Origin: a virus
Strand: one strand, 5' to 3'
DNA: 64,000 nucleotides
Virus record (IMG/VR): IMGVR_UViG_3300032397_000001
The number at the start of each line of letters is the position of its first letter. Positions within the stretch are counted from its first letter, which is position 1. Both the position numbers and the translations under genes were made by a program. Under the pieces are notes generated by a model. It was given only the letters and a program-made list of their open reading frames with translations, did no database searches and had not been told where the DNA came from. Of this stretch, positions 2,031 to 49,866 are shown one piece after another.

Positions 2031-2035
2031 GTTTT

Positions 2036-2254: not shown

Positions 2255-2303
2255 TAGATGGAGAGTTGTCGAAGATTTTCTTGATTGATGATCCTCCACG
2301 AGG

Positions 2304-2858: not shown

Positions 2859-2862
2859 GTTT

Positions 2863-5732: not shown

Positions 5733-5971
5733 GATGTGGTCATGATTGGAAACCAATTGAGGGTTGGGTAGGTCGCTATAGGTGTTCTTGGTGTAATATA
5801 ATTGGTTATCGTAAAATTATTATACCGCGATCAGTATTACGTGATAGTAAGGATGATCCTGGAGGGATTATCCCATATAAATGTGGTCATCCTAAGTGTA
5901 AACATTATGCTCATCGTTCTATTAGAAGAGGAGAATTCCGTTGTCTCAGTCATTCGAAAAAGACAACTTAA
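5711..5971 (+). CDS. Small Cys/His-rich hypothetical protein
   Basis: CGH...CSWC and CGHPKC...C..H. Confidence 0.55.
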   Translation: MSETQDMRCGHDWKPIEGWVGRYRCSWCNIIGYRKIIIPRSVLRDSKDDPGGIIPYKCGHPKCKHYAHRSIRRGEFRCLSHSKKTT

Positions 5972-8260: not shown

Positions 8261-8591
8261 AGATCGAAGAGTTGTAATTTTCAAGTCGGTTTCAGGAGAG
8301 TTAGGAATTGGTTATCTTATTTTAGAGGGTGAGATACCACAGCGTATTGAGAAGTGTTTAGGATTGAAGTTTCCTAAACTTCCTGCTCCCCCTCTATTTG
8401 GAAGGGATCAGCAGATTGAGGTTGCTATGTATCCATTGAACCCTTTAGGTCAAGAACCTCCGACGTTTAAGATGGAGCATGTAATCTTTTATGATCAAGT
8501 TATTCCTGAGCCTGTGTATTGTAAATTTATTGAACTTGTTTCGAAAATCAAAGTTCCTGTATTGAATGTGGTAACTAAAAGAACGAACTAA
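8253..8591 (+). CDS. Hypothetical protein, possibly Sm-like fold
   Basis: VVIFKSVSGELGIG N-terminal strand pattern; AGGAG RBS before ATG 8253. Confidence 0.5.
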   Translation: MSEDRRVVIFKSVSGELGIGYLILEGEIPQRIEKCLGLKFPKLPAPPLFGRDQQIEVAMYPLNPLGQEPPTFKMEHVIFYDQVIPEPVYCKFIELVSKIKVPVLNVVTKRTN

Positions 8592-8592
8592 A

Positions 8593-8835
8593 ATGAATGA
8601 AATCGAAATCAAAGGGAAATTAACACCAGCACACATCGAGTGGATAAAAGAGAAATATTATAAACAGTATGTCGGCTGTCAAAACACGGGGTTTCCAATT
8701 ATAACTTATTCAGGGGTACTCAGTGAAGAGGTTCTTAAGAAGATTAGGTTAGAATTGGTGATTGGTTTTAAACCAGAGTCGATCGAATATTATTTGGGGC
8801 GTCCTCAGGAAATTCCAAACTTATTCAGGAGGTAA
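8593..8835 (+). CDS. Hypothetical protein
   Basis: 80-aa ORF in operon context. Confidence 0.55.
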   Translation: MNEIEIKGKLTPAHIEWIKEKYYKQYVGCQNTGFPIITYSGVLSEEVLKKIRLELVIGFKPESIEYYLGRPQEIPNLFRR

Positions 8836-35514: not shown

Positions 35515-37668
35515 TTGACTCTCAATGATGAGGATTTTTATTTTCGTGTTGTCCTCAACTGTGATTTCTATCAGGAATTTCACCGTGATTGGTTTCGCTT
35601 TGGAGCTCAAAATTCAAGAACCCTCCTTTTAGGTCCTCGTGATTCTTTAAAGTGTGCTCACCCGTTAACTCTTATCCCTTCTGATGATTCTGTCTCCTAT
35701 CTTTTTTCTTTGAAACGTAATCAAGAGATTTCTTCAGTCTTTAAGAGCTTATCTTCACGTGTTCAGGTTAGAGGTGAACGAGATGTCAAAAGAGTTTTTC
35801 GTGTAAAGGTTGGGCCTCCTTTTGACTTTTGGGTCTATCTTTCCCCTGAACATAAAGTTTTTTGTTATGATGTGGTTCAGGATTCCTTTGACGTTGTTGA
35901 GACGCAAAAGTTAAGTAAAACATCTCATCTTGTATTCCTCGCTCGACCCCCTATATTCAATCCTTTATTATCTGTTAAATCAAAAGAAAAGTTGAAGCTT
36001 ATTCTTGCGAACACATTTTCGTCGAAGAAGATTCTAGATGAGAACGTTCTAAAGATGAATACCAAATCTTTTTCTAGGCTTCTTGCTGTTATCGACGATC
36101 ATTATAAGCATGATGAATTAAAAGAAGCTCATTCATTTCTTTATAATAAATTACAAGTAATGAAATTTTATCATGGTCTTATTAAACCAGATTCAACTTC
36201 CGCGTTAACCCTTATGAAGGGGTCTTGTCTAAGAAATCGATCAAAGCTTGATCGGGATAAGATTGCCTTCTTGGTGGATGAACAGACAGATTTTGCACCT
36301 TCACCTGTTCAAGTTAATTCGGATTTTTGCTGCTTTGCATGTATTGAGGAGATAAAGGAAGTTCTTCTAGATGGGCCTGTTACATTTTTTGATTGTAATG
36401 TCACCAATTCACATTATATTGCAAATGGATTTGTAACTCATAATTCGACCTTTCATACTGTAGGCCGAGTCCTTCATGATGCTTTAGAGAACCCTGAGAA
36501 ACGTTATGCTATTATTTCAGCAACGAGTAAGTTAGCTGCGGGTCAAGTTTCAAGAATTCAGCGTATATGTCAAAGTAGTCCTGTTGTTAGGTATTGTTTT
36601 AGTGATGTAATTAATCCTAGAGAGATTCGTCGTTGGTCGGGTGAATCATTAGAATTTATTCGTAAGTCGATATATCCCGAACCTACTATTTGGGCTTTAG
36701 GTGTTGGAACGGATTTTACGGGTTTTCACTTTGAGGAGGCTTACTTCGACGATTTAGTTACAATACGACATAGGAAATCTGCCACTTTACGGACACAGAC
36801 ATGGGATTGGTTTCGTTTAACGGCTATCCCTGCATTAGACAAGTTGAGAGGTCGTGGTCACGTTATTGGTACTCGATATCATTGGGATGATATGTATGGA
36901 AAATTGTATGAGATCGCTCAATCATCTGGTGGGTGGAAAATTTCAAGAACTCCTGCCCTAGATGAGGAATTACTTTCACAGGATATTGCAAGGTCTTTTT
37001 GGCCTGAGAGATTTCCGGAAGAGGATTTACTTCAAATAAGATCAGATTATGGTGAAGATGTTTTTCAGTTGCAGTATCAATGCGCAGCAGGCATTGTATT
37101 AGCCGAACAAAATAAACAGTATATAGCTAAACTCCGAGACTCAATAGTACCCATGTCAATAAAAGATAAGGTGGTTGATATTGTGTTAGGTGTCGACTTA
37201 GCCTCTAGAGGAAGCGGTACATTACCTGATGCGAAAAAAGCTTCCTTCAGTATAAGTGCTACTGGAAAGCATATGGAGACAGGTAAGTTTATTACTCTTG
37301 AGGTCATTAAGATCAAACACCCCACTCTCAATGACAAGAAAGAGTGGGTTAAAACTATGCATAATAGATATAATCCGTTGCTTGTTGCGGTTGAAGCTCA
37401 TTCACAGCAGTCGGATTTTTTAGAATATTTAGCCGAGGATGATTTTCCATATTCAGTTAAACCCGTTAAGAGTTTTGAGTCTAAAGAAGCCCGATTTGAT
37501 TATGTATTAAACCTCATTGGTTCTGGATCTTTGTTTTTTGTGGAGGGAATGTGTCAACCTCTATTAGAAGAAATGTATATATTTCCAGAGACTACAGGAG
37601 ACGCTATTGATTCTGAGTTTTACTCGTTAAGAGCTTCTTATCGTGAGCCTAATATAAGATTCATGTAA
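35515..37668 (+). CDS. terL: Terminase large subunit with intein (true start probably further upstream)
   Basis: Walker A GPRDSLK|ST, TGFHF...YFDDL Walker B, IGTRYH.DD, nuclease GVDLA...VE...DAID. Confidence 0.9.
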   Translation: MTLNDEDFYFRVVLNCDFYQEFHRDWFRFGAQNSRTLLLGPRDSLKCAHPLTLIPSDDSVSYLFSLKRNQEISSVFKSLSSRVQVRGERDVKRVFRVKVGPPFDFWVYLSPEHKVFCYDVVQDSFDVVETQKLSKTSHLVFLARPPIFNPLLSVKSKEKLKLILANTFSSKKILDENVLKMNTKSFSRLLAVIDDHYKHDELKEAHSFLYNKLQVMKFYHGLIKPDSTSALTLMKGSCLRNRSKLDRDKIAFLVDEQTDFAPSPVQVNSDFCCFACIEEIKEVLLDGPVTFFDCNVTNSHYIANGFVTHNSTFHTVGRVLHDALENPEKRYAIISATSKLAAGQVSRIQRICQSSPVVRYCFSDVINPREIRRWSGESLEFIRKSIYPEPTIWALGVGTDFTGFHFEEAYFDDLVTIRHRKSATLRTQTWDWFRLTAIPALDKLRGRGHVIGTRYHWDDMYGKLYEIAQSSGGWKISRTPALDEELLSQDIARSFWPERFPEEDLLQIRSDYGEDVFQLQYQCAAGIVLAEQNKQYIAKLRDSIVPMSIKDKVVDIVLGVDLASRGSGTLPDAKKASFSISATGKHMETGKFITLEVIKIKHPTLNDKKEWVKTMHNRYNPLLVAVEAHSQQSDFLEYLAEDDFPYSVKPVKSFESKEARFDYVLNLIGSGSLFFVEGMCQPLLEEMYIFPETTGDAIDSEFYSLRASYREPNIRFM
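35653..36444 (+). mobile_element. Intein in TerL Walker A (264 aa, endonuclease degenerate or absent)
   Basis: Starts CAHPLT after LK, has SPEHK block B, and ends FDCNV...YIANGFVTHN before ST. Confidence 0.88.
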
Positions 37669-37678
37669 GGAGTCATTT

Positions 37679-37987
37679 ATGAAGTCTGTCACAATGTGTA
37701 TCTTTACTGATGAGAAACATCTTGGTGATGTGAAAAACTTAGTTTTGCCTGTAGATTCTACTCTTTACGTATTAGGTTTAAACAAGAAGGAACATAAGAC
37801 TTGTATACAGGTTGCGAAGAAGCATAGAGCGTTCAATTTATTAGAGGAGCATGGTATTGTGATGGTTATCATCGAAGCTGGTAACCGTCTTATAAAAGTC
37901 GCAGGGGCGGAAGCGATTGATCAATTTCTCTCCATGTATTTCGCTCAAACCCCTCAGAAGCCTGAAATAAATTTGGAGCGCTTGTAA
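37679..37987 (+). CDS. Hypothetical protein
   Basis: AAGGAG RBS; lies between TerL and portal. Confidence 0.6.
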   Translation: MKSVTMCIFTDEKHLGDVKNLVLPVDSTLYVLGLNKKEHKTCIQVAKKHRAFNLLEEHGIVMVIIEAGNRLIKVAGAEAIDQFLSMYFAQTPQKPEINLERL

Positions 37988-39315
37988 TGTCGAATACTGT
38001 TACGAAGGTTTGGCAGAGTACTCTTGGTAAGCTAGTTGAAGTAAAATTCTTTCCACGACGTACTCCTGAACAGATTCCACAAAGTAAAATCATCAAGGAA
38101 ACTTTGTCTGATTATCCTTCACCGGCTCAATTCCCCAATCTTTTTACTTTGTATAAGAGAAATTCCTGGATCTTTTCTTCTGTTAACATGATTGTGCAGT
38201 CTTGTGTTGCTGTGCCTTTACGTGTTCGTGATCGATCAACTAAACGTATTATTTCTCCTACTGAGACTACTGAAGTAGGAATAGTTTTAAAGTATCCTAA
38301 TCCATTTATGACTCAGATGGAATTGATGGAGCGTCTTTTTTTACATTTAGAGATTGTAGGGAATGCATTTTGGGAAATGGTAGTCCAGGGAAATAAACTT
38401 CTCGCGATTTATCCTCTTGATCCTACCTCGATGACGATTATACCTGATGCACGCAATCTTGTCAAGGAATATGTTTATTCGGTAAATGGGAAAGATACTC
38501 ACTTTGCGCCCAATGAGATTATACACTTTAAGTATGTTGATCCTCAGAGTGAATTTTGGGGCTGGGCTCCAGTAATGGTGATGATGCGTCAAGCCAGATT
38601 AGAAGACAAACTGAAAACATATGGTGAAAAATTCTTTGATAATGATGCTACCCCTAGTGTTGTTTTGAAGACAGACCGTATTCTTTCTGATCCTACTTAT
38701 GAACGTTTACGTAAACGGTGGCTGGAGCGGCATCAAGGCGCTGCGAATAAATTTTCTGTTGCAATTCTCGAAGATGGGATGTCTTTTGAAAAAGCTGGCA
38801 CAATAATGTCCGAGTTAGATTATTCTGCCATCGAGGATAAGGTTCGCGATGAAATTACAGTGTCGTCAGGAGTTCCTCCTACGTTGTTAGGGATTCCGGG
38901 AGTTGCAAATTATGCCTCCGCTCGAGTAGCTCAGTCGATGTTCTTTGATTCGATCATTGCACCTCGTTTACGTAAAATTGCAATGACTGTTGACAAAGAT
39001 ATAATGAATCGATTTGATCGTGATCGTGAAGCCGTCTTTGACACTTCGGTTGCACCCATAAATATTGTGAAGCTTAGTGCGAATTCTCGAGTGGTGGCTA
39101 GATTATATACGCTAGATCTTATGACTTTGGATGAAGCTCGAAATTTGTTAGGTTTAACTCCAGATGATAAAATAGGTGACAAATATAAGAGTGAAGTAGA
39201 TGCGGAGAGAAGAAAAAGGGCTGCTGCTAGTGAGGGAGGAGATTCTAGTACAGGAGCAGACGCAGGCAGCGCTGCTGAAGGGACTCAGCAGGACCCTGGT
39301 GATATAGGAGATTAA
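37987..39315 (+). CDS. Portal protein (HK97 family)
   Basis: PNPFMT, GNAFW, EIIHFK, FFDNDATP, ILEDGM, GVPP.LLG, MTLDEARNLLGL. Confidence 0.93.
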   Translation: MSNTVTKVWQSTLGKLVEVKFFPRRTPEQIPQSKIIKETLSDYPSPAQFPNLFTLYKRNSWIFSSVNMIVQSCVAVPLRVRDRSTKRIISPTETTEVGIVLKYPNPFMTQMELMERLFLHLEIVGNAFWEMVVQGNKLLAIYPLDPTSMTIIPDARNLVKEYVYSVNGKDTHFAPNEIIHFKYVDPQSEFWGWAPVMVMMRQARLEDKLKTYGEKFFDNDATPSVVLKTDRILSDPTYERLRKRWLERHQGAANKFSVAILEDGMSFEKAGTIMSELDYSAIEDKVRDEITVSSGVPPTLLGIPGVANYASARVAQSMFFDSIIAPRLRKIAMTVDKDIMNRFDRDREAVFDTSVAPINIVKLSANSRVVARLYTLDLMTLDEARNLLGLTPDDKIGDKYKSEVDAERRKRAAASEGGDSSTGADAGSAAEGTQQDPGDIGD

Positions 39316-39322
39316 TATAAAG

Positions 39323-40345
39323 ATGACTTTAGATGATCTTTTGAATGCAGCCTTAGGTAAGGTTAGTGATAAAGAACTTCTGGAAGGGCACCTCCGTTTA
39401 CATCAATGGTTTATGAATGCGCCAAAAGAGGATGTTAATGCTCGTCAGGATTTGTTAAGAGCCCATCAAAAAGTATACTTGGAATTCATTAGAAGGGGGC
39501 TGCATCATTCTCCTGGTGAGGGTATTGATAGAATTGATTTAGCATATCCTAAAATTGAAAGTTCAATGTATTCTGATTACTCTAATGCTGAAGCAATATT
39601 GGGCCAGAGTATTCCTAATACAAATGTGGGGTGGCATGCTTCATTGCATGACATTTGGATTGCGGTTAAAATGAGGATGGGTTTGACGAAACCTGAGGAA
39701 CAGTTGATTAATACTCATGACATTGTTACTAATAAAATGGGCCATCATCCTATTTGGGATGAATTGGATGCTGATTGGGTATCTCAGTTTAAAAGCTTTT
39801 CTATGATGGTAGATGAGGATCCTGAGTTTATTTCTCTAGAGAAGGTCCTTCAAGGTTTTCCTGATAAGATTACTCTTGTTTCAGGTGCGGTTACTTTTAA
39901 GAAAGGATCTATTTATATTGTAAAAGGAATTATGGGCTCTTTGCGTGTTGCGATTTTAGTCAAGTTGCTTCGGAGAACAACAGGTTCTGAGTTGCCCGAT
40001 CTGCCAGAAGATCCTGATAGTGTTTTTGATCTTGATTTGGTTAATCATAGAGTAGTTGATTCATTGATATTGTCTTATACTGATTCAGCTTTTCCTCCTT
40101 TATATTGGATTAGCCGACCATTTGTTTATCTGGTTGGAGGTGTTGTTGAAAGCAGGATTTCATTAGTAGATGCAGATATTTTGATTCGTAGTGGCCTTCC
40201 TGATTGGTTTTATCAACATGTAGTATCTACTCTGACTCTAGAACACCCAGAGGGGCATAATTTACATTTTTCGGCTGATATAGGTTTAGGGCCTTTATCA
40301 CATAATATTCCTCTGTATGATTTAGTGTTGGAGTTAGCCGTTTGA
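39323..40345 (+). CDS. Head-module protein: two His-rich helical repeats + Pol-beta-type nucleotidyltransferase domain
   Basis: HLRLHQW...H..V..E..RRG..H and HASLH...H..V...M.HH; C-terminal LVGG-x9-DAD signature and PLYDLVL. Confidence 0.6.
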   Translation: MTLDDLLNAALGKVSDKELLEGHLRLHQWFMNAPKEDVNARQDLLRAHQKVYLEFIRRGLHHSPGEGIDRIDLAYPKIESSMYSDYSNAEAILGQSIPNTNVGWHASLHDIWIAVKMRMGLTKPEEQLINTHDIVTNKMGHHPIWDELDADWVSQFKSFSMMVDEDPEFISLEKVLQGFPDKITLVSGAVTFKKGSIYIVKGIMGSLRVAILVKLLRRTTGSELPDLPEDPDSVFDLDLVNHRVVDSLILSYTDSAFPPLYWISRPFVYLVGGVVESRISLVDADILIRSGLPDWFYQHVVSTLTLEHPEGHNLHFSADIGLGPLSHNIPLYDLVLELAV

Positions 40346-40896
40346 TACTTCAAATTGGGCCTGCTAAAGTAGAGATTTCGATTGATGATGGTGCCACCTT
40401 CTCTGAAGCTTTCGCGTCATCAGAAGCTAATATTACTCTCAATTTTCAGTATCGTGATCGTGTCAATGATGGTGTAGTAGTTGAATCTGCATATGAATCA
40501 GCTACTTTAACATTTGAATTGAACGCTACAGAATGGTCAATAGATGTTCTGAAGGCATTGTTCCCTTTTAGTTATTCTTATACTGATGCACCTACAGGAG
40601 TTCCCCGCACTACTAGAAGTCATCTTTTTGATTTGGGGGGTTTGACAGAAGAAGTTGAGACTAGTAATTATACACAATGTATTGTGTTTAAGAATGTACC
40701 TACCTGCTGGATAAAGTTTACACCTAATGTTACAGGCAAGGCAATAGGAGCTGAAATTCCAAAGGCAAGATTTGCTGAGGAGTTATCCATTCCGTTTGCA
40801 CCTTCACAGGAAGTAATACCTATTAAAGGAATAGGAATGAAATCACCTAATCAAAGTTTATTACTTATTTGGATGAATCAATGTATAATTCTATGA
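40342..40896 (+). CDS. Tail-tube-like protein (paralogue of 52268..53416)
   Basis: IGPAKV...ESATLTFELNATEWSIDVLKALF aligns by eye with IGPCVV...ETATLKFESIEWNLANLAKALG. Confidence 0.6.
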   Translation: MILQIGPAKVEISIDDGATFSEAFASSEANITLNFQYRDRVNDGVVVESAYESATLTFELNATEWSIDVLKALFPFSYSYTDAPTGVPRTTRSHLFDLGGLTEEVETSNYTQCIVFKNVPTCWIKFTPNVTGKAIGAEIPKARFAEELSIPFAPSQEVIPIKGIGMKSPNQSLLLIWMNQCIIL

Positions 40897-41038
40897 TAGG
40901 CAAAAAAATTTGGCATCAGAGTCGCCAGGTTATAATACGTAAGATTGTAAGATCGTGTTGTGGCAAGACAAGATTTCTTGTCGAAGACTCCAAGACAGGA
41001 AAACAAGAAATGATTATCGGCCGCCTTCCAGGTCAAAG

Positions 41039-41494
41039 ATGACTCCTCAAGTCTTAGAATTTGTACAAAAACTAAATTTACAAGGCCGAACACTTGATGT
41101 TGGAAGTATGGATGTCAATGGAAGTGTTCGTGATTTTTTTATAAACTATATTGGTCTTGACATGCGCCTTGGGAAAAATGTTGATATAGTTGCGAAGGCA
41201 AATCATCTTCCTTTCGTTAGTAATTTATTCGATAATGTGACATGCCTAGAAATGCTGGAGCACGATGATTGTTTCTGGGAAAGCATTCCTGAAATGATAA
41301 GAGTGTTAAAGATAGGTGGTTCTTTCGTTTTAACTGCTAGAGGAATTCATTTTGAGAAGCATGAATATCCTCATGATTATTGGCGCTTTACAAAAGAATC
41401 TTTTGAATTACTATGTAAAGGTTTAGCGAATATTGTTTGTATTGATGAAACCGGTGAAAGTGGTGTGTTCTTATGTGGAGTGAAGGGTGCCTAA
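41039..41494 (+). CDS. Class I SAM-dependent methyltransferase (type 11-like)
   Basis: TLDVGS.DVNG, GLD...G.NVD, LEH, LKIGG, YPHDYWRFT. Confidence 0.85.
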   Translation: MTPQVLEFVQKLNLQGRTLDVGSMDVNGSVRDFFINYIGLDMRLGKNVDIVAKANHLPFVSNLFDNVTCLEMLEHDDCFWESIPEMIRVLKIGGSFVLTARGIHFEKHEYPHDYWRFTKESFELLCKGLANIVCIDETGESGVFLCGVKGA

Positions 41495-43073
41495 ACTTTC
41501 TGTTTCTGTTGCAGTAATGAATCAGAAGGAGATCACTCAAACTTTTTTTGAGTCGTTGTATGCATTTACTATAGACTTTGAATTGATTATAACAGATAAT
41601 GGATCAGGCGATGAGACAGCTCAATTTCTAAGTGAGTTTGTTCAGGCTCACGAGAATGCGGTTCTCATTAGACACAAGTTGAATGTAGGATTTGGTAAAG
41701 CACACAATATAGCTTCACGTCGTGCTCAAGGCCAGTTTTTTGCTGTTTTAAATAACGACATTGAATTTTTTGAATTCTGGGCTGAAAAACTGTATCCTCT
41801 GTTCGATGAATCTAATGTTGCATTAGTAGGGCCATCAAATGGAGTTTGTAATTCGTTAACACCAGATGCACAAGGAGTATTCAACCCCGAGAAAGTAAAT
41901 GATCCTGATTACTGTGAAGGGTCATGTTTAATGATGCGAACTAAGCTAGCGCGTAAGTTTGGTCCATTCGACGAGGCTTATAGACTAGGATATTATGAAG
42001 ACTCAGACTTAGGAATTCGAATAAGGAAGGCAGGCTTCAAGTTAAAGACTGTACCTCTTGATTGGGTTCACTATCGTGCAAAGACTTCTTCTGCTGTAGC
42101 TGAAACACTTGATATACCAGGAATCCATTTTGTTAATGAGCAGATCTTTCGACGTCGATGGACAAGTTATCTTCTCCGTAAAAGGTTTGGTAAAACGTAT
42201 ATTATACAACGCAAAGGATCTCATGGAGATGTTCTCTTAACTACTCCAATTATTGAAGCAATTAAGAAAAGAGAGCCTGAATCAGTAATTTGTTTTTCTA
42301 CACAATGTCCTGAGACTATAGCAAGAAATTCTCAGATTGATTATCTAATCCCTCCTGATCTTCCATTTCAATGTGATGAGTTCATTAATCTGGACAGTTC
42401 TTATGAGAGGAGATTTAATGAGCATATTATTGATGTGTATGCTCGTGTAGCAAAAGTAAAAGTATTAAGGAAGAGAGCAAAGGTTACTTTGTTGAAAGAC
42501 GACTTCAAATTTATTGAGAGGTATCTTCCCCCCAAATTTAACTCTTATATAGTAGTTGATGTTAGTGATACATGGCAAGGAAAACAGTGGACTATTGAGA
42601 ATTGGGCTGGAGTTACTGAAGAATTAAGGAAACACAACATCACAGTTGTGTCTGTAGGCATTTCTAAAACACGCAATCTGAAAGGGATTGCACAAATAGA
42701 TCTTATCAATAAATTAAGCATATCGCAAACGTCTGCTGTGATTTGTCGTGCTGCAGGATTCATAGGAGCTGAAGGATTAACCGCTCATGTATCTCAGGCT
42801 GTTGACACCCCCTGTTTAGTTCTATATGGATGCACTTCTCCTCAATATGTTAGTTGTTCAGATGCAATGATTGAGCATGTAATTTCATCTGTTGCATGTC
42901 AAGGTTGTAGACATGTTTCATACCCTTCTGGAGTTACAGTTATTTGTAAACGTGATTATGAATGCATGAAGCGCATAACGGTTCAACACGTAATAGATCA
43001 GTTTGCTGTGTTAATGCAAAAATATGGCAAATTAGAAAAGGTAGTCCATTTGAAGGACGTTCCTAATGCGTAA
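41487..43073 (+). CDS. Fused GT2 + GT9 (heptosyltransferase-like) glycosyltransferase
   Basis: GT2: DNGSGD, NVGFGKAHN, LNND, YYEDSD. GT9: GDVLLTTP, KQW..ENW, HV..AV.TP...LYG, C..C...C...CM. Confidence 0.85.
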   Translation: MPKLSVSVAVMNQKEITQTFFESLYAFTIDFELIITDNGSGDETAQFLSEFVQAHENAVLIRHKLNVGFGKAHNIASRRAQGQFFAVLNNDIEFFEFWAEKLYPLFDESNVALVGPSNGVCNSLTPDAQGVFNPEKVNDPDYCEGSCLMMRTKLARKFGPFDEAYRLGYYEDSDLGIRIRKAGFKLKTVPLDWVHYRAKTSSAVAETLDIPGIHFVNEQIFRRRWTSYLLRKRFGKTYIIQRKGSHGDVLLTTPIIEAIKKREPESVICFSTQCPETIARNSQIDYLIPPDLPFQCDEFINLDSSYERRFNEHIIDVYARVAKVKVLRKRAKVTLLKDDFKFIERYLPPKFNSYIVVDVSDTWQGKQWTIENWAGVTEELRKHNITVVSVGISKTRNLKGIAQIDLINKLSISQTSAVICRAAGFIGAEGLTAHVSQAVDTPCLVLYGCTSPQYVSCSDAMIEHVISSVACQGCRHVSYPSGVTVICKRDYECMKRITVQHVIDQFAVLMQKYGKLEKVVHLKDVPNA

Positions 43074-44070
43074 ATTGAAGGTATGTTTCTTATCCGCAGA
43101 TACTGGAGGATCTGGGTATTATCGTACAAAGTTGCCTGCGAAGTATTTACAACAGAGTCGATATGATGATCTTGAAGTTATGCACTATGATGATTTCAGG
43201 TTGATTAAAGATCCCTTCGATGTTTTAATAATACAACGTCAATGGAGAGATCATATTCTTGTTTGGTGTCTACAGTTAAAAAAGCAGGGTACGAGAATCA
43301 TTTTTGAATTAGATGACAATTTATGGTCTATTCCATCAACTATAGATTCTCATAAAATATATCAACTTGACACGCTACATAAAATAGAAAACTTTATTCG
43401 TATGAGTAATGCTGTAATTACCACTTCTGATCCTCTTAGAGTAATCTTATCGCAATTCAATTCAAATGTATGTGTTATTCCTAATTTTGTAGAGATTCCT
43501 GAAATCATTCCGCAGTTGCCGAAGCGTAGAATAAAAATCGGGTTTTGTGGAAGTGTATCTCATGTTGAGCATCTTAAGATTTTAACTCCTATTTTAATTC
43601 GATTGAATGCGATCTGCCCCAAGATTGAATTAATTGTTATGGGATTACCGTGCCCAGAATTGAGTTTGTACGCAACAACGATTTTACCGGCTTCTCCTGA
43701 GTCTTTTATCAATGCATTGGCTTCTCTTGAGCTTGATATCGGTCTCGCATATGTATTTGACAATATTTTCGATAAATGTAGAAGTTGGTTGAAGTTTTTA
43801 GAGTATTCTATCACGGGTGCTGTGACGGTGGCTCCGAATCTTGAACCATATTCAAATATTATTACAAATGGTGAAAATGGTATTTTAATAAATAAGGATT
43901 CAGATTGGCTCTCCACTTTAACTGAGCTTGTGAAAAGTGGAGATTACAAATCGATGGCAAGAGTCGCTTATCAAGAAACTTTGAATTCTTGGTTAATACA
44001 AAATAATGTTTATCGGTGGTATAATGTTATTCAGGAGACTGTAGATGGACAAAGAGAACAATGTGCGTGA
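43066..44070 (+). CDS. Glycosyltransferase (GT4-like, phage type)
   Basis: GGSGYYR..LP, IQR, ELDD, IPN, IGFCGS..H, LDIGLA...F..C.S..K.LEY. Confidence 0.8.
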   Translation: MRKLKVCFLSADTGGSGYYRTKLPAKYLQQSRYDDLEVMHYDDFRLIKDPFDVLIIQRQWRDHILVWCLQLKKQGTRIIFELDDNLWSIPSTIDSHKIYQLDTLHKIENFIRMSNAVITTSDPLRVILSQFNSNVCVIPNFVEIPEIIPQLPKRRIKIGFCGSVSHVEHLKILTPILIRLNAICPKIELIVMGLPCPELSLYATTILPASPESFINALASLELDIGLAYVFDNIFDKCRSWLKFLEYSITGAVTVAPNLEPYSNIITNGENGILINKDSDWLSTLTELVKSGDYKSMARVAYQETLNSWLIQNNVYRWYNVIQETVDGQREQCA

Positions 44071-46603
44071 AGCTGACGCGCAAGCTAAAACCAATGAACT
44101 TTTAGGTCCTGGACACTTCTTCTGGGTTCCAAAGACATCAGTTTCTATAGTTAGTTATCGAGAGGCTGAAGTATATTCAGTCACACAACTTATGGAATAT
44201 GTTGATCTTCTTGAAAGAAAGTATCATACATTTCCTGAGATAGCTATTCAAAAGAAGTATGATGGTGATAATATCGAGTTTCACCGGGATACTCATGGGA
44301 AGTTTACAATTTTTACGGATAATGGATCTACGGTTACGAATCGTGTACCTGGCCTCATTAAGCTTTCAGAGAAACTTTTTTCTGATAAGTCATATATTCT
44401 AATTGGTGAATTGGAAGGATGGTCTCATGGTGTTCATTCTGGTCGTGAACAAGTCTCAGGATATTTGAATGCACAAACTCCTCCTAATGATTCTACGTTG
44501 TGTATAAGCTTTTTCGATTGTGTGTGGTTTGATGGAAAGGATTTGCATGGTGAGCCGTATAATGTGAGATATGGGCTTCTCGAGAAAGAGTTCAAGATTT
44601 CTCAATCACTCATAACCAATTTGCAACCCGGTTTCAATCTTGCGCCAACCTTCATAGTTAAAGCGAAAGCTGCTTTACAGAGTGCAGTGCAACAGGTAGT
44701 ACGACCAAGAGAAAGCGAGGGCGCCGTTCTTAAGATTTGGAATGGGTTTAAATTTTCCCTAAACAAGAGTGCCAATGAGATGATTAAGTTTAAGAAATGG
44801 GCAGAAGCTCATTTTGTTGTATTACAGAAACGTCAAATTGCAGGGTCAAAACAAACGTTTCAGTATTGGATAGGTATTAAGGTTTTGGTGTCTGAGCGTG
44901 ATACTGTTGTTCAGAATAAGGTTGAGGAATATGGTGGACAGAATTACTTGCGTTGTGCCAAGACATTTAACACGAATGTCCAAGCAAAGGTAGGTGATAT
45001 AATTACAGTTAGATTTAGCAATGTTTTTGTATATCATGAACAGGATAAAATCTATTTTGGTATTTATGCGCCCAATGTTTATGAGAATAGAACTGTGCAA
45101 CAGCATGATGAGGAACCTGATACTGTTTCTACATTGTTAAGGATAGGGGAAGAGTCTGGACTGATTGTGCAGAAAGGTATAGGAGTTTTCATTTCTAAGG
45201 CTACTGATGCTTTCATGCAATATCCTCCAGAAGCAAAACCTTGCAAGTATGTTATGCAAGAACATTTCAGAGGGAAGACTGCTCATATTGATTTCCGTAT
45301 CCAGTCTATTTCAGATACTTTGATTGGTTATACTATCATGAATCAGGTTGAGGGAAAGATTAAGACCCCAATTCTAAATGTAGCACAAGGGCGTAAAGTT
45401 TTAAAACAGTCTGATAATTGGAAGTTTGATGCTATCAAAGGTATTTTTCAACGACGTCGAATTGCAGGTGGAGAGATTCGATTTGCCAGTCTTCAGGTTG
45501 CACTCAAACAATCGGAGCCAGAAAATTGGCTTTCAGTAGAGGGCGTTTCCGAAGTTGGTGGGACGGGAGCCACTTCAAAATGGCCTGGAGTATTTGTCAT
45601 TGCATCGCAAGGACAGTTAGCATATGGCTATCGAGAAGTTTACTTTCACGAGTATTTTGTGTATAATGATAAATGGCCTGATGGGGGTCTCCGAATGTTG
45701 TTTAGACTTCTCTCAGGTCCTGAATTACAGCAAGCATCAATTCCGATATCGAATTTGTTAGAACCTTTCACTGATGAACCTGACAAGTTTACTGTTGAGA
45801 ATAACGAAATTATTTTTGATAATGGAACGATTTCTATGCATGACTTCGAAGTAGATCGTCTTGGCAAATCTCTGCATAAGATACTTCCTCCTTCGGAGGA
45901 GCCTGGGCGTGAAATGCCTTTTGTTTGGCTTCTAGTTAAACCAAAAACGAATGAACCATATATATTATCTGCGCGGGCAAGGCTGAAAAAGAAATATTCT
46001 CCTGTAGGAGTATCGACTTTACCTGCTTCGGTCAAGAAACAAATCCCTGCTTCCTTGAGATATTGGGAAGCATCCTCTTCACAGAAGATGCAAGCTATGC
46101 TTGATGAGCTGAGAGATAAAATTAAAGGACATGAAGTCGAGTTGGACTATAGTGATAAGGTTGTTTTCAAACGTGCAAGTAGCTTTGTTTTGGAAAAGGC
46201 AGCTGAGTCAAGTTATATCTTGAAGCGACGCTGGTGGCGGGGGCCCATAGTTATCAGATTGGGATCATCTGCGGAATTTTATGATTTGTATTTCCAAAAA
46301 GATCAGGAATGGGATCAGTTTATTTTAACGCAGAATCCTGTTAACTATGATTCATTCGCAGGATGGTTACGAATTAATATTACCCAAGATGAAGTTAATT
46401 TTGAGGGAACTTTGCCCCCTGGTCATGAGCTCAATCCAAATAAAAAGTTAGCAGCCGAGACGAAGATTGTTGGATCAGGTACTTTTAGTTTGAATGAGAT
46501 ATCCCGTGATGTTTGGCAATTAGAATTTAAAGATGGAACTTTGAAGGATAGATCTTTTACAGCGACGCGTGATGCTGGTATATGGAAGTTTAGTTTGGGT
46601 TGA
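44045..46603 (+). CDS. Second ATP-dependent DNA ligase fused to LigD phosphoesterase-like domain(s), in head module
   Basis: KKYDG, IGELE, FFD, SEGAVLK, IKFKK plus OB fold; then YVMQEHFRGKTAHIDFRI (LigD PE-like) and a degenerate copy YILKRRWWRG...FYDLYF. Confidence 0.8.
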   Translation: MDKENNVREADAQAKTNELLGPGHFFWVPKTSVSIVSYREAEVYSVTQLMEYVDLLERKYHTFPEIAIQKKYDGDNIEFHRDTHGKFTIFTDNGSTVTNRVPGLIKLSEKLFSDKSYILIGELEGWSHGVHSGREQVSGYLNAQTPPNDSTLCISFFDCVWFDGKDLHGEPYNVRYGLLEKEFKISQSLITNLQPGFNLAPTFIVKAKAALQSAVQQVVRPRESEGAVLKIWNGFKFSLNKSANEMIKFKKWAEAHFVVLQKRQIAGSKQTFQYWIGIKVLVSERDTVVQNKVEEYGGQNYLRCAKTFNTNVQAKVGDIITVRFSNVFVYHEQDKIYFGIYAPNVYENRTVQQHDEEPDTVSTLLRIGEESGLIVQKGIGVFISKATDAFMQYPPEAKPCKYVMQEHFRGKTAHIDFRIQSISDTLIGYTIMNQVEGKIKTPILNVAQGRKVLKQSDNWKFDAIKGIFQRRRIAGGEIRFASLQVALKQSEPENWLSVEGVSEVGGTGATSKWPGVFVIASQGQLAYGYREVYFHEYFVYNDKWPDGGLRMLFRLLSGPELQQASIPISNLLEPFTDEPDKFTVENNEIIFDNGTISMHDFEVDRLGKSLHKILPPSEEPGREMPFVWLLVKPKTNEPYILSARARLKKKYSPVGVSTLPASVKKQIPASLRYWEASSSQKMQAMLDELRDKIKGHEVELDYSDKVVFKRASSFVLEKAAESSYILKRRWWRGPIVIRLGSSAEFYDLYFQKDQEWDQFILTQNPVNYDSFAGWLRINITQDEVNFEGTLPPGHELNPNKKLAAETKIVGSGTFSLNEISRDVWQLEFKDGTLKDRSFTATRDAGIWKFSLG

Positions 46604-46753: not shown

Positions 46754-47401
46754 ATGCCTACTTACAAAAACAACAGGTCCGAACGTTTGGTTGTTATGGG
46801 GATTGCCTTTCTTCCGGGTCAACAGAAGACGACTGACAAGATCTTGATGGAAACCACTCTTGAGGTTTCTGCAATATCAACCGCTTTCCAGGTAGGTGAA
46901 ACTGTCAGTGCTGGATCTCCTACAGCGACTGGGAAGATTTTGAGAGTTAGGACAAATCCTGATCTCTTGGATCTTGTTGGTCGCAATAGCAACGATTTCG
47001 TGACAGGTACTACCCTTACGGGTGGAACTTCGAGCTGTTTTGCGAGCGTTGAACGAATCAGTGAGTTGGTAACAGCCATCTCGGCCGAGCCGTATTACAA
47101 TCCCAAGACAACTGCTCATACGGTGACTGCTAGTGGGGCTGAAGTTGAAGTGATGTATCTCTCCGACTTTTTCAATACCAGATATCTCAAGATTTCGGAT
47201 GTGTCGGGGGGTATCACCATTGATATTTATTTCCGTAGTGAGTCTAACACACCTGCGGTCGTTGACGGAATGGGAAACATCGATGATCCCATTATTCTCG
47301 CTGTTAATCAGAATGTGGAGTGCCTAGCAATTGATTTCTCCGGAGCGGGAACCTGTATCGTGGAGGAATTCACAACTCTTGAAGCCGCGGAGATTGGATA
47401 A
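46754..47401 (+). CDS. Probable virion structural or decoration protein
   Basis: AAGGAGG RBS; T/S/G/V-rich beta sequence (FQVGETV...ATG); directly before the protease. Confidence 0.5.
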   Translation: MPTYKNNRSERLVVMGIAFLPGQQKTTDKILMETTLEVSAISTAFQVGETVSAGSPTATGKILRVRTNPDLLDLVGRNSNDFVTGTTLTGGTSSCFASVERISELVTAISAEPYYNPKTTAHTVTASGAEVEVMYLSDFFNTRYLKISDVSGGITIDIYFRSESNTPAVVDGMGNIDDPIILAVNQNVECLAIDFSGAGTCIVEEFTTLEAAEIG

Positions 47402-47420: not shown

Positions 47421-48440
47421 ATGCCTAAAGTACAACTCAAGAAGCTCTTGAAGCCTGTCAAGTTTGAGGCAAGCCTTCATATCGAGAAGATTCAGGAAGT
47501 TCCTGAGTCTGATCAAAGCAATGCTGAAATCAAACGCATTGTTGAAGGTTATGCAATTGTTGCAGGTAACGTTGACGAGCAGAGAGATCGTATTGAACCC
47601 AGTGCTCTAGCGAAAGCAGTAGAGTACCTTAAGAGCTATACTACTGTTCTGTTTAATCATGATCCGAATCGACCCATTGGCAAGATTCTCGACATTGCAG
47701 TGCGCGAAGCCAAAATCTGGGTGAAGGTGCTCATCAGTAATTCCGAAGATGAAATCTGGGGTAAGGTTGTAGAGAAGATTATTAACAGTTTCTCTATCAG
47801 TGGAGAAATCGATGAATTCGCTTATGAATATGACAAGGCTCTACAATCTCAGGTTCGGGTCATAAAGAGTTTTAGGGTGTATGAAATTTCTTTGGTTTCA
47901 GTACCCGCAAATTCTGAGGCTAAGACTTTTAACGCGTATATTTCCAAATCGCTTCAGGACGCAGGGTACAGTTTTGAGTCTACGAATGAGGACCAATCGA
48001 ATGTATCGGAAATGCTTGAGTTCCTTAACATTGGCATGGAGGTCGTGAAAGCTATGGACTGGAAAGAAAAACTCACAAAGGCAATCAAGGCGTTGGGTGA
48101 TGTGGCCGCAAAGATCGAAGATGCGCAGGTTCGGGATACTCTCAAAGAGATCCAGAAACTGTTGACAGATGTGGCCGCAGAGGTTCCCCAGAATTATCCC
48201 GCTGCCAACAAGGATCTCCAGGACGCGCTCGACAAAATCAAGGGCTTGGAAGGCAAGATTGGTAGTGTCGAGAAGACTCTTGCAGATCGTCTTGAAAAGG
48301 TGGAAAAGGATCTGGGGAGTGTCGATGAGATCCTCGGTGGTATGACCGAAATGCTCAAGTCCTCGGGCGAGACTGACGCAGCAGCTGCGGCGAAAGCTGC
48401 TGCGGCGGCGGCGAAAGGCACTCATATCAGCGCTGACTAA
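47421..48440 (+). CDS. HK97-family prohead protease with C-terminal coiled coil
   Basis: VEGYA, VD...D.I, LFNHD...PIG, SFSISG, YEISLVSVPAN. Confidence 0.92.
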   Translation: MPKVQLKKLLKPVKFEASLHIEKIQEVPESDQSNAEIKRIVEGYAIVAGNVDEQRDRIEPSALAKAVEYLKSYTTVLFNHDPNRPIGKILDIAVREAKIWVKVLISNSEDEIWGKVVEKIINSFSISGEIDEFAYEYDKALQSQVRVIKSFRVYEISLVSVPANSEAKTFNAYISKSLQDAGYSFESTNEDQSNVSEMLEFLNIGMEVVKAMDWKEKLTKAIKALGDVAAKIEDAQVRDTLKEIQKLLTDVAAEVPQNYPAANKDLQDALDKIKGLEGKIGSVEKTLADRLEKVEKDLGSVDEILGGMTEMLKSSGETDAAAAAKAAAAAAKGTHISAD

Positions 48441-48504: not shown

Positions 48505-49866
48505 ATGAAAAATTTGGAGATAGCCAAGAAATTGATCCATGACGCAGCTCTGCTTCGTAAGACGCAGGCTGACCAGTCACAGGTCAATGAATTGGTCAAA
48601 ACGGCTATTGAGCAACAGATGAAGGCTCTCGGCGGTCAGCCCTCTCTGCGTAAAGGACAATTCAATCTCAGTATGGCGAATGCAGTTGCCGTCGGTGGCG
48701 CCAAGGGACAGCCTCTGCAGAAGGCTCTTCTGAGTCCGGCGGGTAAGGCTGATGATGCGCGCGAGTTCCAGAAGATGAGTGATACCGTATATATCACTTC
48801 GGTACTCGTCGGGTGCCATCCGACCGATCTTGAGTGTTACAAGATGCTCAGGAGCAACAAGCTGTTCAAGGACGCGTACTCGTCAGGCGATTTCGACGCT
48901 ACGTGGTGGTGGCCGGACACTCTTTCTCGTGACATGATCGAAGAGGTCGAGAAGGAGTTGAAGGTTGCGGCTCTCCACAGAACGATTCAGATGCCTACCA
49001 ACCCGTACAAGATCCCTGCGAAATCGGGTAGGACGAAAACTTATCTGGTTGGGGAGTCAACTGACGACGCGGGGACCAAGCCGTCTTCCAGCAAGGGGCC
49101 AACTCCTGGTACCGGTATCACCTTCGATGCAAAGAAGCTGATGGCGTATTCCATTGTGTCGGAGGAAACCAGCGAGGATATGGTCCTCCCCATCATTGAT
49201 CTCATCAAGGAAGATGTCGGGAAGTCCATGGCCGAGGCTATCGAGACTGCTGTTCTCAACGGTCAGATCGTTGCAGAGACCATCGATACCGCGGCAGCTT
49301 ATGCTGCGAACGATTCTGTTCGCGCATGGAATGGATATCGAGTGCACGCTCTTGGTGGTGGATGGACAGTTGACTTCTCAGGGTGGACCAAGTCAACGGC
49401 AGTTGACTTGATGAGGAAACTCAGGGCGACCATGGGAAGGTATGCTGTCGGAATCGACAAGCTGGCGTGGTTGGTATCCATCAATGGGTACAATCATCTG
49501 CTCAACACTGAAGAGATGTTGACCCTTGACAAGTACGGCGCCAATGCGACTCTGCTCAAAGGTGAGCTCGGAAGGTTTGATAACATTCCGATCATCATCA
49601 CTGAGTTCCTTCCTGAGAATCTGAATGCATCAGGGGCTTACACTTCGGATGTCGACAACGACAATACTTGTGTTCTCTTGGTGTACAAGGATGGTTGGGT
49701 TCACGGTGAACGAGCAAGCTTTACTGTGAAACAGGGCGAGGAGATCAAGACGGACCAGAAGTATTTGATCTCTCGCGCTCGTAGGGATTTTCAGCCCCTT
49801 TATATGGGGACCTCGTATTCTCAGTCTATCGTTGCAGCTGGTTATGGCTTGCCCAATACCCTGTAG
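48505..49866 (+). CDS. Major capsid protein (HK97 fold)
   Basis: Follows the protease; P..LS..MIE, YLVGE, ITFDAKKL, SEE..ED, AIE.A.LNG, G.F.NIPII.TE.LP. Confidence 0.92.
   Translation: MKNLEIAKKLIHDAALLRKTQADQSQVNELVKTAIEQQMKALGGQPSLRKGQFNLSMANAVAVGGAKGQPLQKALLSPAGKADDAREFQKMSDTVYITSVLVGCHPTDLECYKMLRSNKLFKDAYSSGDFDATWWWPDTLSRDMIEEVEKELKVAALHRTIQMPTNPYKIPAKSGRTKTYLVGESTDDAGTKPSSSKGPTPGTGITFDAKKLMAYSIVSEETSEDMVLPIIDLIKEDVGKSMAEAIETAVLNGQIVAETIDTAAAYAANDSVRAWNGYRVHALGGGWTVDFSGWTKSTAVDLMRKLRATMGRYAVGIDKLAWLVSINGYNHLLNTEEMLTLDKYGANATLLKGELGRFDNIPIIITEFLPENLNASGAYTSDVDNDNTCVLLVYKDGWVHGERASFTVKQGEEIKTDQKYLISRARRDFQPLYMGTSYSQSIVAAGYGLPNTL

Follow-up and report, generated by a model that had tools for sequence, protein, structure and literature searches.

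A linked ligase, phosphoesterase and nucleotidyltransferase set in a viral head module: a candidate packaged kit for healing and sealing phage DNA

Between its portal and prohead protease genes, the DNA of the uncultured phage analyzed here (the window, a stretch of 64,000 nucleotides from IMG/VR record IMGVR_UViG_3300032397_000001) encodes a linked set of enzymes in two proteins, i.e., P0002, with two His-rich helical hairpins and a putative minimal nucleotidyltransferase (NTase) domain, and P0001, with an ATP-dependent DNA ligase core, a putative LigD-type 3'-phosphoesterase (PE) domain termed PE1, a conserved middle segment and a second PE-fold domain termed PE2. These data give good support to a linked DNA module for healing and sealing, and we consider it somewhat probable that the set is packaged in the virion and represents, in split form, a kit conserved in viral head modules that heals and seals phage DNA.

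All open reading frames (ORFs) were found at the coordinates given in the original prediction, every one on the + strand (Table 1). The slot between portal and protease does contain the two proteins that had been named for it, but it also holds genes for a methyltransferase and two glycosyltransferases as well as two ORFs without assigned function. The methyltransferase and glycosyltransferase genes are a lineage-specific insert (40955-44070), missing in all of the 12 syntenic relatives; there, the ligase gene directly follows the P0002 homologue. The two function-unassigned ORFs had no match in Pfam or PHROG and, among the syntenic relatives, were present (by tblastn) in the closest one only. 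From the portal through the ligase-PE gene, neighboring genes overlap or nearly abut; a gap of 150 nt separates the ligase-PE gene from the next ORF, and no terminator-like intergenic sites were found between the portal and capsid genes. This gene layout predicts co-transcription of the kit genes with the head genes.

Table 1. Features of the portal-to-capsid region and the separate ligase gene (positions in the window).
Feature	Coordinates	Strand	Basis
Separate canonical ATP-dependent DNA ligase, replication region	6989-8260	+	PF01068 E 6.6e-22, PF14743 OB domain
Portal protein, upstream boundary of slot	37987-39315	+	PF04860 E 3.7e-53; phrog_2662
P0002, 340 aa	39323-40345	+	ORF
His-rich helical hairpin (N-motif), P0002 residues 1-76	39323-39550	+	Invariant residues, AF2 model
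Second hairpin copy, P0002 residues ~98-140	39614-39742	+	
Putative minimal Pol-beta-type NTase domain, P0002 residues 257-338	40091-40336	+	Motif, model
184-aa ORF, no assigned function	40342-40896	+	tblastn match in L013 only
Class-I methyltransferase, within lineage-specific insert	40955-41494	+	Pfam and PHROG matches
GT2+GT9 fusion, within lineage-specific insert	41487-43073	+	Pfam and PHROG matches
Glycosyltransferase, within lineage-specific insert	43066-44070	+	Pfam and PHROG matches
P0001 (ligase-PE protein), 852 aa	44045-46603	+	ORF
Ligase core (nucleotidyltransferase and OB domain), P0001 residues 40-371	44162-45157	+	PF01068, fold match, motifs
PE1, putative variant LigD-type 3'-phosphoesterase domain, P0001 residues 390-557	45212-45715	+	Metal-site motif
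Middle segment, conserved, no assigned fold, P0001 residues 563-712	45731-46180	+	Invariant residues
PE2, predicted PE-fold domain without His/His metal site, P0001 residues 717-850	46193-46594	+	Fold match
215-aa ORF, no assigned function	46754-47401	+	tblastn match in L013 only
Prohead serine protease with coiled-coil tail, downstream boundary of slot	47421-48440	+	PF04586 E 4e-14; phrog_80
Major capsid protein	48505-49866	+	

The gene order portal, P0002, ligase-PE, protease, capsid was kept in all 12 of the 12 syntenic viral contigs, and at least 10 metagenomic polyproteins join the same domains in matching order, which agrees with the predicted linkage of ligase, LigD-type PE and Pol-beta-type NTase. 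The N-motif and/or the NTase occur with ligase and PE in one chain in L016/L017, P0019, P0029, P0031, P0035, P0037 and P0042; domain order in these fusions is that of the genes in the window except in L016/L017, where PE1 and PE2 come before the ligase. The polyproteins also hold UDG, Pyr_excise, NUDIX, Dam, N6/N4 methylase, MBL and 2H domains (UDG, methylases, MBL or 2H and, at the C-terminus, an XkdF prohead protease being frequent additions), and the UDG, pyrimidine-dimer glycosylase, NUDIX and DNA methylase domains fit protection and the repair of base damage at least as well as double-strand-break joining. No homologue was found among the cultured phages of the collection; ANMV-1 alone had one (23% identity).

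The N-terminal part of P0001 is an ATP-dependent DNA ligase core with all catalytic motifs, complete as had been predicted. It matches PF01068 at residues 62-250 (E 5e-16, Pfam), and motifs I, III, IV and V, as well as residues K71, D73, G74, E122, E225, G226, K230, K248 and K251, are invariant across 16 homologues; motif I is without the Arg usual in DNA ligases. The ligase model matched an archaeal DNA ligase (3gde) with VIA Z 25.8, the African swine fever virus (ASFV) ligase (6imk) with Z 19.3 and the ligase of M. tuberculosis LigD (1vs0) with VIA Z 18.5, and human LIG1 was matched by Foldseek (E 6e-16). Overall, DNA ligases scored Z 18-26, capping enzymes approx. 15 and RNA ligases 12 or less. 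The separate ligase predicted in the replication region is also present, and this second enzyme may point to a specialized role for P0001.

These scores bear on whether the set could be an RNA repair kit like T4 Pnkp/Rnl or bacterial Pnkp/Hen1, which would heal and rejoin host tRNAs or phage RNAs after cleavage by anticodon nucleases or other defensive RNases. Ligase modules of Pnkp/Hen1 do align to the P0001 model (Z 10.9-12.4), the missing motif I Arg is compatible with such a role, PE enzymes take off 3'-ribonucleotides as well as 3'-phosphates (PMC3082917), and among relatives P0029 has a 2H phosphoesterase and P0035 a class-I methyltransferase. However, DNA ligases are far ahead in the fold comparison, an OB domain is present, the Pfam family is that of DNA ligases, and domains co-fused in relatives (UDG, Dam, N6/N4 DNA methylases, pyrimidine-dimer glycosylase) are DNA-specific; RNA repair consequently appears improbable to us.

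Close to the position (~45250) from which a domain with a LigD-like motif had been predicted, PE1 carries QEHFRGKTAHIDFR (residues 405-418, nt 45257-45298), which follows the pattern Q405-x-H407-x6-H414-x-D416-x-R418 and marks PE1, at the level of sequence, as a putative variant LigD-type 3'-phosphoesterase. Six residues are essential in PE enzymes, and a His-to-Ala mutant was inactive in both CkoPE and MbaPE (PMC3082917). PE1 retains four of these six, as E491 and W495 occupy the positions of CkoPE H51 and Y55 (PMC3082917); since Glu and Trp replace an essential His and Tyr, its chemistry may differ from that of PE enzymes. The metal triad and Arg are invariant across homologues (23-55% identity), PF13298 gave sub-threshold matches in two relatives, and the PDB matches of the relative P0020 are LigD PE structures only, while the PE1 profile itself matched no PE structure. 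In P0009, an intein is inserted within the PE1 motif; inteins favor functionally critical sites.

The middle segment, which occurs together with PE1 and PE2 in relatives, shows invariant W628, P638, Y639, R644, A645, P653, G655, S657, P660, P668 and W674. PE2 corresponds to the degenerate second copy predicted from ~46215. Its model aligned to 3p4h with VIA Z 14.1 (115/118 residues aligned, rmsd 2.4) and to 3n9b with VIA Z 11.5, and the top PDB matches of its profile were 3p43 (E 0.013) and 3p4h (E 0.023). PE2 has separate invariant motifs (WRGPxVxRxGxS, LNPN) and is, judging from the model, a degenerate and probably non-catalytic PE fold that lacks the His/His metal site.

In P0002, the N-motif shows invariant H23, H27, H48, E54 and R58 and helices at residues 16-32 and 38-58 (AF2 model); many ligase polyproteins carry this motif at their N-terminus, and it gave weak but repeated matches to PF03013 (Pyr_excise). 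The C-terminus reads LVGG-x9-DADILI, which confirms the GG-x9-DxD signature of the original prediction, and G272, D283, D285, D319, G321 and P324 are invariant in 14 family members with 23-40% identity, indicating that the motif is a conserved feature rather than a chance occurrence. The model has the topology beta-GG-alpha-beta(DxD)-alpha-beta(D)-beta. Outside the N-terminal helices, the only structure matches of P0002 were MNT antitoxins, with modest to weak scores (8xeh_E, Z 4.9, 86 residues aligned; 8xeo_B, Z 4.8); a Catovirus Pol-beta NTase was matched in BFVD (probability 0.6), and Foldseek gave no significant match for the NTase domain. We assign this domain as a candidate minimal Pol-beta-type nucleotidyltransferase with a modest fold match. 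By pattern, the NTase motif was not found in the ligase-PE proteins of ANMV-1, L014, P0018 and P0039, and a profile search covering P0018 and P0039 found none in these two. The domain has approx. 85 residues, without the additional domains that a templated polymerase has, and we know of no minimal NTase that is a gap-filling polymerase. The "fill" role in the proposed LigD-like fill/heal/seal set is therefore an analogy, while linked heal-and-seal domains are present.

The lost metal site of PE2, the two canonical residues absent from PE1 and the location among structural genes would fit ligase and PE folds exapted as catalytically irrelevant head proteins, i.e., internal, scaffolding or DNA-binding parts of the capsid. 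Conversely, at 23-55% identity, no change is seen in any catalytic residue of the ligase, in the metal triad and Arg of PE1 or in the carboxylates of the NTase, and the PE1 motif is an intein target; we find such exaptation very hard to credit.

A survey of co-occurrence and fusion with portal and protease genes, as proposed initially, revealed both. The ligase-PE gene comes after the portal gene in phages with PF04860, PF06074 or PF06381 portals (three unrelated families); in L016, it comes after a MuF-like gene. In P0018, P0029, P0035, P0039 and L014, the chain ends in a fused XkdF prohead protease. As the fused XkdF domain is a prohead protease (47% identical to head-maturation proteases from cultured phages), encapsidation is plausible. 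Gene position and these protease fusions are the two observations that suggest capsid loading, and the enzyme set is probably tied to the virus head. In the window, P0001 and P0002 are not fused to the protease, and no signal for targeting to the capsid was identified in its enzymes.

The set might instead consist of late, unpackaged cytoplasmic enzymes for DNA maturation or repair, which would be expressed with the head genes and would heal and seal nicks, gaps and damaged ends of replicated concatemers just before or during packaging; protease fusions of relatives would then serve only co-expression or release by cleavage. Virion carriage is something we infer, the window proteins are not joined to the protease, co-transcription with terminase, portal and capsid genes is predicted, and a second ligase beside the replicative one fits a packaging-linked task. 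On the other hand, a domain fused to a prohead protease goes into the procapsid by construction, the position after three unrelated portals and a MuF-like gene is typical of packaged head proteins (PMC5512222), and the DNA methylase and UDG domains of the polyproteins suit early protection better. We regard action outside the virion as possible, if rather unlikely.

If the set is packaged, as we favor, the His/His/Asp metal site of PE1 would unblock 3' ends of broken phage DNA, the NTase might add one or a few nucleotides or adenylylate a partner (the weakest step), and the ligase, given its intact motifs, would seal the break via a Lys71-AMP intermediate; more speculatively, PE2 and the helical hairpins could bind DNA or its ends. 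By analogy with the protease-ended polyproteins of relatives, the enzymes would probably be assembled into the procapsid and, together with the DNA, be delivered to the cell, where they would mend damage or defense-inflicted breaks ahead of phage gene expression. Circularization of the genome and resealing of restriction or CRISPR breaks, both put forward originally, may be among such tasks.

Like LigD, the phage set fuses a two-domain ATP-dependent ligase core to PE-fold domains, appears to combine end healing with sealing and varies in domain order among relatives; the Q-x-H...H-x-D-x-R metal-binding motif is shared with LigD and with stand-alone archaeal PE proteins (3n9b, 3p43, 3p4h; PMC3082917). 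Unlike LigD, it is encoded in a virus head module rather than a cellular repair locus, has a separate minimal Pol-beta-type NTase in place of the AEP-type POL domain, and has two PE domains in tandem, one without a metal site; PE1 further differs in its H-x6-H spacing, a Glu for the phosphate-binding His and a Trp for Tyr. In agreement with the original prediction, no Ku was found in this phage record, which is 63% complete. Mycobacteriophages Corndog and Omega use Ku homologues to recruit host LigD for NHEJ-type joining of their own genomes; they supply Ku and rely on the ligase of the host, whereas this phage brings ligase and PE. The ASFV base-excision repair set (Pol X, ligase, AP endonuclease) likewise combines a minimal Pol-beta-family NTase of its own, an ATP-dependent ligase and a 3'-end cleaner for genome repair, but it belongs to a eukaryotic virus, its Pol X is a true templated polymerase, its end cleaner is an AP endonuclease rather than a PE, and its genes lie outside a head-morphogenesis operon.

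Magroviruses, archaeal viruses whose replication genes include PolB and MCM and which we compared by description, have an ATP-dependent ligase in the structural module (Philosof et al. 2017, PMC5434244); in the passages on this ligase, neither PE domains nor an NTase partner nor protease fusions are mentioned. Packaging and injection have been predicted for the polyvalent proteins found in phages and conjugative elements (Iyer et al. 2017, PMC5512222). Relatives of the set resemble them in being multidomain, lying beside portal/MuF genes and carrying a peptidase together with enzymes such as DNA methylases, NTases and 2H, but the set in the window consists of separate genes rather than one chain. 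A term search of that paper gave no LigD, XkdF, ATP-dependent DNA ligase or PE-type phosphoesterase, and the ligase mentions it returned concern ATP-grasp RNA ligases only. Finally, the P0002 C-terminus resembles the MNT minimal NTases (HEPN-MNT antitoxins, 8xeh, 8xeo) in size, beta-alpha-beta topology and the G[GS]/DxD/third-Asp signature; it differs from them in that the structural match is weak and no HEPN partner was found, and in that the P0002 NTase shares its chain with His-rich helical hairpins and has a ligase as its linked partner.

The initial observation that a nucleotidyltransferase (NTase) protein and a protein joining a ligase to phosphoesterase (PE) domains are encoded between the portal and prohead protease genes was confirmed, and the conclusion that P0002 (340 aa; helical hairpins and NTase) and P0001 (852 aa; ligase and PE domains) form a linked module for healing and sealing DNA that is associated with the phage head is well supported. 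The window spans positions 10296-74295 of an IMG/VR virus record of 98.5 kb (estimated completeness 63%), which carries every gene on the + strand. Replication genes are bacterial-phage-like in type and, as initially observed, include a ligase separate from P0001. The terminase large subunit contains an intein-like insertion (weak PF14890 match at residues 108-310), with terminase homology found again from approx. residue 325.

Features of the window and of three related loci (positions in the window unless another genome is named)
Feature	Position	Strand	Remarks
Canonical ATP-dependent ligase with OB domain	6989-8260	+	Replication gene
Family A polymerase with N-terminal UDG-superfamily domain	14000-16639	+	Replication gene; PF03167, E 4e-12
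DnaB-type helicase		+	Replication gene
SbcC/Rad50-like ATPase		+	Replication gene
RecA-type recombinase		+	Replication gene
Terminase large subunit with intein	35515-37668	+	
Portal	37987-39315	+	PF04860
P0002	39323-40345	+	
Two His-rich hairpins of P0002	39323-39742	+	Residues 1-140
184-aa ORF	40342-40896	+	No family match; kept only in L013
Class-I methyltransferase, GT2-GT9 fusion, further glycosyltransferase	40955-44070	+	Between P0002 and P0001
P0001	44045-46603	+	
C-terminal PE-fold domain of P0001 (PE2)	46193-46594	+	Residues 717-850
215-aa ORF	46754-47401	+	No family match; kept only in L013
S78 prohead protease	47421-48440	+	
Major capsid protein	48505-49866	+	
Portal of archaeal virus ANMV-1 (L001, KP703175)	1913-3193		PF06381, E 3e-22; labelled "MutT-like phage hydrolase"
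Gene of Lactococcus phage 56701 (L020, KX456209)	4848-5897		Labelled "DNA methyltransferase"
P0002 homologue P0022 of L013 (closest relative)	7108-8712		PF12706 domain within first hairpin

From the portal gene to the ligase-PE gene, adjacent genes overlap or are separated by gaps of ≤58 nt, and 150 nt separate the ligase-PE gene from the next ORF. A promoter/terminator scan, which showed no enrichment as compared to shuffled sequences, found no intergenic terminator-like sites up to the end of the capsid gene. Given this tight spacing and the lack of such sites, the simplest reading places the ligase-PE/NTase set within the head operon. The methyltransferase and glycosyltransferase genes are a lineage-specific insert in a variable slot, outside the core kit; they are absent from 12 of 12 syntenic relatives. 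The polyprotein P0035 carries a class-I methyltransferase domain in the same slot, with generic likeness only to the methyltransferase of the window.

An IMG/VR scan identified a ligase-PE homologue at 17 loci. An NTase unlinked in related genomes was among the outcomes set to refute the original prediction; instead, the order portal, P0002 homologue, ligase-PE, protease and capsid was found in all 12 loci sharing the head genes of the window, and single-chain fusions also link the NTase to the ligase. The P0002 homologue adjoins the ligase gene in 11 of these 12 loci, the exception being the closest relative (L013). In L016 and L017, a single ORF encodes hairpin, NTase, the first PE-like domain (PE1), PE2 and ligase, and a search with P0002 against 1.8 billion representatives yielded 25 proteins. 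Polyprotein architectures, assigned with our own profiles of six modules and Pfam, comprised hairpin-2H-NTase-ligase-PE1-Mid-PE2-XkdF protease (P0029; Mid is the segment between the PE domains), hairpin-methyltransferase-NTase-ligase-PE1-XkdF (P0035), hairpin-NTase-ligase-PE1-Mid (P0042), NTase-ligase-PE1-Mid-PE2 (P0019), UDG-ligase-PE1-Mid-PE2-XkdF (P0018), Dam-NTase-ligase (P0038) and NUDIX-Dam-N6/N4 methylase-UDG-hairpin (P0041). As the domain order of the fused chains equals the gene order of the window, save for the permuted ORF of L016 and L017 (PE1 and PE2 before the ligase), the window is the split form of a polyprotein. The accessory domains suggest a broader role of the module in DNA-damage repair and protection.

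Searching more widely for longer fusions that include the PE region turned up a single protein. No relatives were found in a prophage/host search of 185,579 species genomes; among cultured phages, the ligase-PE protein matched ANMV-1 alone, and a polyprotein query gave protease-domain matches only. Some polyproteins also contain an ASCH/PUA-like domain (P0036, residues 46-157, matching TTHA0113 [2dp9] with E 0.012; P0019, N-terminus).

The complete ATP-ligase core predicted within P0001 was borne out by both sequence and structure comparisons. Residues 62-250 belong to the ATP-dependent DNA ligase adenylation family (PF01068, E 5e-16), and motifs I (KxDG), III, IIIa, IV (EGxxxK) and V (KxK) of the adenylation domain are all present. 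Among 16 homologues (30-53% identity), K71, D73, G74, E122, E225, G226, K230, K248 and K251 (motifs I, III, IV and V) are invariant; the Arg that usually comes after ligase motif I is not conserved in this family. In an AlphaFold model built on the homologue alignment (mean pLDDT 81), residues 1-372 matched archaeal, human, ASFV, T4 and M. tuberculosis LigD ligases with VIA Z scores of 18-26 (e.g., 25.8 for 3gde and 18.5 for the LigD ligase 1vs0), as compared to approx. 15 for capping enzymes and ≤12 for RNA ligases; Foldseek gave E 6e-16 for the ligase core. As DNA ligases outscore capping enzymes and RNA ligases, residues 1-372 are, in this model, a two-domain (NTase and OB) DNA-ligase core.

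The claim of a LigD-like phosphoesterase held for the motif of PE1 and failed for its complete active site and its recognition by the family profile. PE1 (residues 390-557) bears Q405-x-H407-x6-H414-x-D416-x-R418. In archaeal PE enzymes, structures and mutagenesis identified His9, His15 and Asp17 as manganese ligands, with Arg19, His51 and Tyr55 at the phosphate (PMC3082917). All five motif residues (Gln, two His, Asp and Arg) are retained in PE1, where the His-His spacing is one residue longer than in the Candidatus Korarchaeum enzyme (CkoPE). PE1 does not, however, keep the full set of six essential residues (CkoPE H9, H15, D17, R19, H51 and Y55), as every family member has Glu (Glu491) at the position of CkoPE His51 and Trp (Trp495) at that of Tyr55. 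The PF13298 profile had no match in P0001 or anywhere in the whole record, the PE1 profile reached no PE structure among PDB sequences, and hhalign gave only a weak partial match between PE1 and PE2 (probability 3%). Two relatives, however, showed sub-threshold PF13298 matches (E 1e-4 and 1e-3) exactly over the PE1 motif, and the sole PDB matches of a further relative, P0020, were two LigD PE entries aligned on this motif. In P0009, a P0001 homologue, a LAGLIDADG intein (residues approx. 414-767) splits the motif between both metal-binding His (QEHFRG / SAHIDFR); inteins favor sites such as a metal site. Overall, these sequence data make it very probable that PE1 is an enzyme of the PE fold whose second shell is altered.

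PE2 corresponds to the degenerate second copy of the original prediction. Its model (residues 721-852) shows the eight-stranded beta-barrel of the PE fold and matched the Candidatus Korarchaeum PE 3p4h with a Z score of 14.1 (115 of 118 residues aligned, rmsd 2.4) and the Pseudomonas LigD PE 3n9b with a Z score of 11.5; the two best PDB matches of its sequence profile were 3p43 (E 0.013) and 3p4h (E 0.023). Both metal-binding His are absent from PE2, while its own motifs (WRGPxVxRxGxS and LNPN) are invariant; PE2 is thus degenerate as an enzyme yet conserved. These motifs suggest a conserved non-catalytic function, and PE2 may perhaps represent an end-binding domain.

The assignment of P0002 as a Pol-beta-type NTase draws mainly on an invariant signature and has modest support from structure; fold searches mostly yielded generic helical matches. 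The GG-x9-DxD signature predicted at the end of this protein is present in the form hG[GS]-x9-13-DhDh, and the next strand adds a third carboxylate (G271/G272, D283, D285 and D319), and G272, D283, D285, D319, G321 and P324 are invariant among 14 family members (23-40% identity). The AlphaFold model (pLDDT 81.7) begins with two hairpins of helices, continues with an alpha/beta part in the middle and ends in a C-terminal unit, which is predicted to show the topology of the Pol-beta nucleotidyltransferase core, i.e., strand-GG-helix-strand(D283, D285)-helix-strand(D319)-strand. Beyond the N-terminal helices, fold matches were limited to two MNT antitoxins (Z 4.9 and 4.8 over 86-87 residues), and weak BFVD matches were to a Pol-beta NTase (probability 0.6) and the head domain of poly(A) polymerase. 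P0002 had no match in Pfam, PHROG or PDB sequences (phmmer), and nothing significant was found with Foldseek on PDB; a wide VIA search gave generic helical matches only (Z ≤7), and ESM Atlas yielded no usable feature match, its stored model being poor. We found no indication of a templated polymerase in P0002, and the proposed role of the NTase in filling ends is conjectural.

The two hairpins of P0002 follow the pattern H-x3-H ... H-x5-E-x3-R, with H23, H27, H48, E54 and R58 invariant in the family, and hairpins occur N-terminally, once or in several copies, in many ligase polyproteins. Matches to the pyrimidine-dimer glycosylase family PF03013 at E ≤1 were found for 7 of 10 hairpin sequences (best E 0.0012), with the hairpin of P0036 exceeding the family cut-off (26.3 vs. 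23 bits); the hairpin of the window itself had no match, and a comparison of the hairpin to PDB did not retrieve T4 endonuclease V. A relationship to pyrimidine-dimer glycosylases is thus a lead from sequence profiles, and DNA-lesion binding and capsid adaptor are candidate roles. The domain inserted within the first hairpin of P0022 has a metallo-beta-lactamase fold.

Three portal families are represented among the phages in which the ligase-PE gene is located downstream of the portal gene, i.e., PF04860 (the window and L016, the latter with an intervening MuF-like gene), PF06074 (L014) and PF06381 (ANMV-1). In ANMV-1, the ligase-PE homologue directly follows the CDS labelled as a hydrolase, which is the portal. 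In the polyproteins, the protease domain at the C-terminus shares 47% identity with head-maturation proteases from cultured phages of Lactococcus, Bacillus and Enterococcus. The "DNA methyltransferase" gene of Lactococcus phage 56701 matches the XkdF prohead-protease domain and is located between a MuF-like "capsid protein" gene and the major capsid gene; it is therefore probably mis-annotated.

A domain fused to a prohead protease enters the procapsid by construction; the protease fusions in relatives therefore represent the best argument for encapsidation, which by analogy applies only indirectly to the window, whose proteins stand free. Virion carriage of the ligase-PE/NTase set appears plausible, with chances that we judge to be about even. 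The specific targets put forward in the original prediction (genome circularisation, and restriction or CRISPR breaks) are conjectural. We regard as tentative, and on balance doubtful, the more specific hypothesis that the capsid of tailed bacterial and archaeal viruses holds an injected, ready-to-act DNA first-aid kit which performs repair prior to gene expression and uses a new PE chemistry. Such a kit would combine a ligase already in adenylylated form, a variant PE for cleaning ends and a minimal NTase (in relatives also glycosylases and methylases). Its link to the prohead protease and the portal slot would bring it into the capsid, and it would be injected along with the genome. Ahead of phage gene expression, it could mend damage acquired in the free particle (by UV, deamination or strand breakage) as well as breaks due to host nucleases; the variant PE would represent a new active-site chemistry (His to Glu).

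If these enzymes ride in the capsid, they would represent a widespread, so far undescribed strategy of virus-borne DNA repair and sealing machinery, with a bearing on phage survival of sunlight and ageing and on resistance to restriction, CRISPR and nicking defences. Also of enzymological interest is a family that includes a compact ligase fused to an altered-site PE, a minimal nucleotidyltransferase and a PE-fold domain that is non-catalytic yet conserved.

Among known enzymes, LigD represents the nearest family, sharing the ligase core, the PE fold and the logic of healing followed by sealing. The set differs from LigD in that Pfam scans of P0001, P0002 and the genes around them revealed no AEP-type POL (primase-polymerase) domain, and in that the six-residue PE active site is kept in neither PE1 nor PE2. 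Ku (PF02735) has no match in the 98.5-kb record, which is an estimated 63% complete. A functional analogue is the ASFV set of Pol X, ligase and AP-endonuclease.

Philosof et al. (2017; PMC5434244) describe a ligase in the structural module of magroviruses, which is probably the same phenomenon as the head-module ligase-PE. MCM and PolB are absent from all five related records examined, and these are therefore not magroviruses. The present data offer a functional frame for this puzzling "structural-module ligase".

The nearest concept is that of polyvalent proteins (Iyer et al. 2017; PMC5512222); a term search of that paper did not find LigD, XkdF, ATP-dependent DNA ligase or PE-type phosphoesterase. 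In contrast to polyvalent proteins, the set in the window occupies two ORFs, separated by 3.7 kb, rather than forming one polypeptide. Like them, it is encoded among portal/MuF head genes in a phage of the terminase-portal type, and its relatives P0018, P0019, P0029, P0035, P0042 and the L016 ORF are multi-domain single chains.
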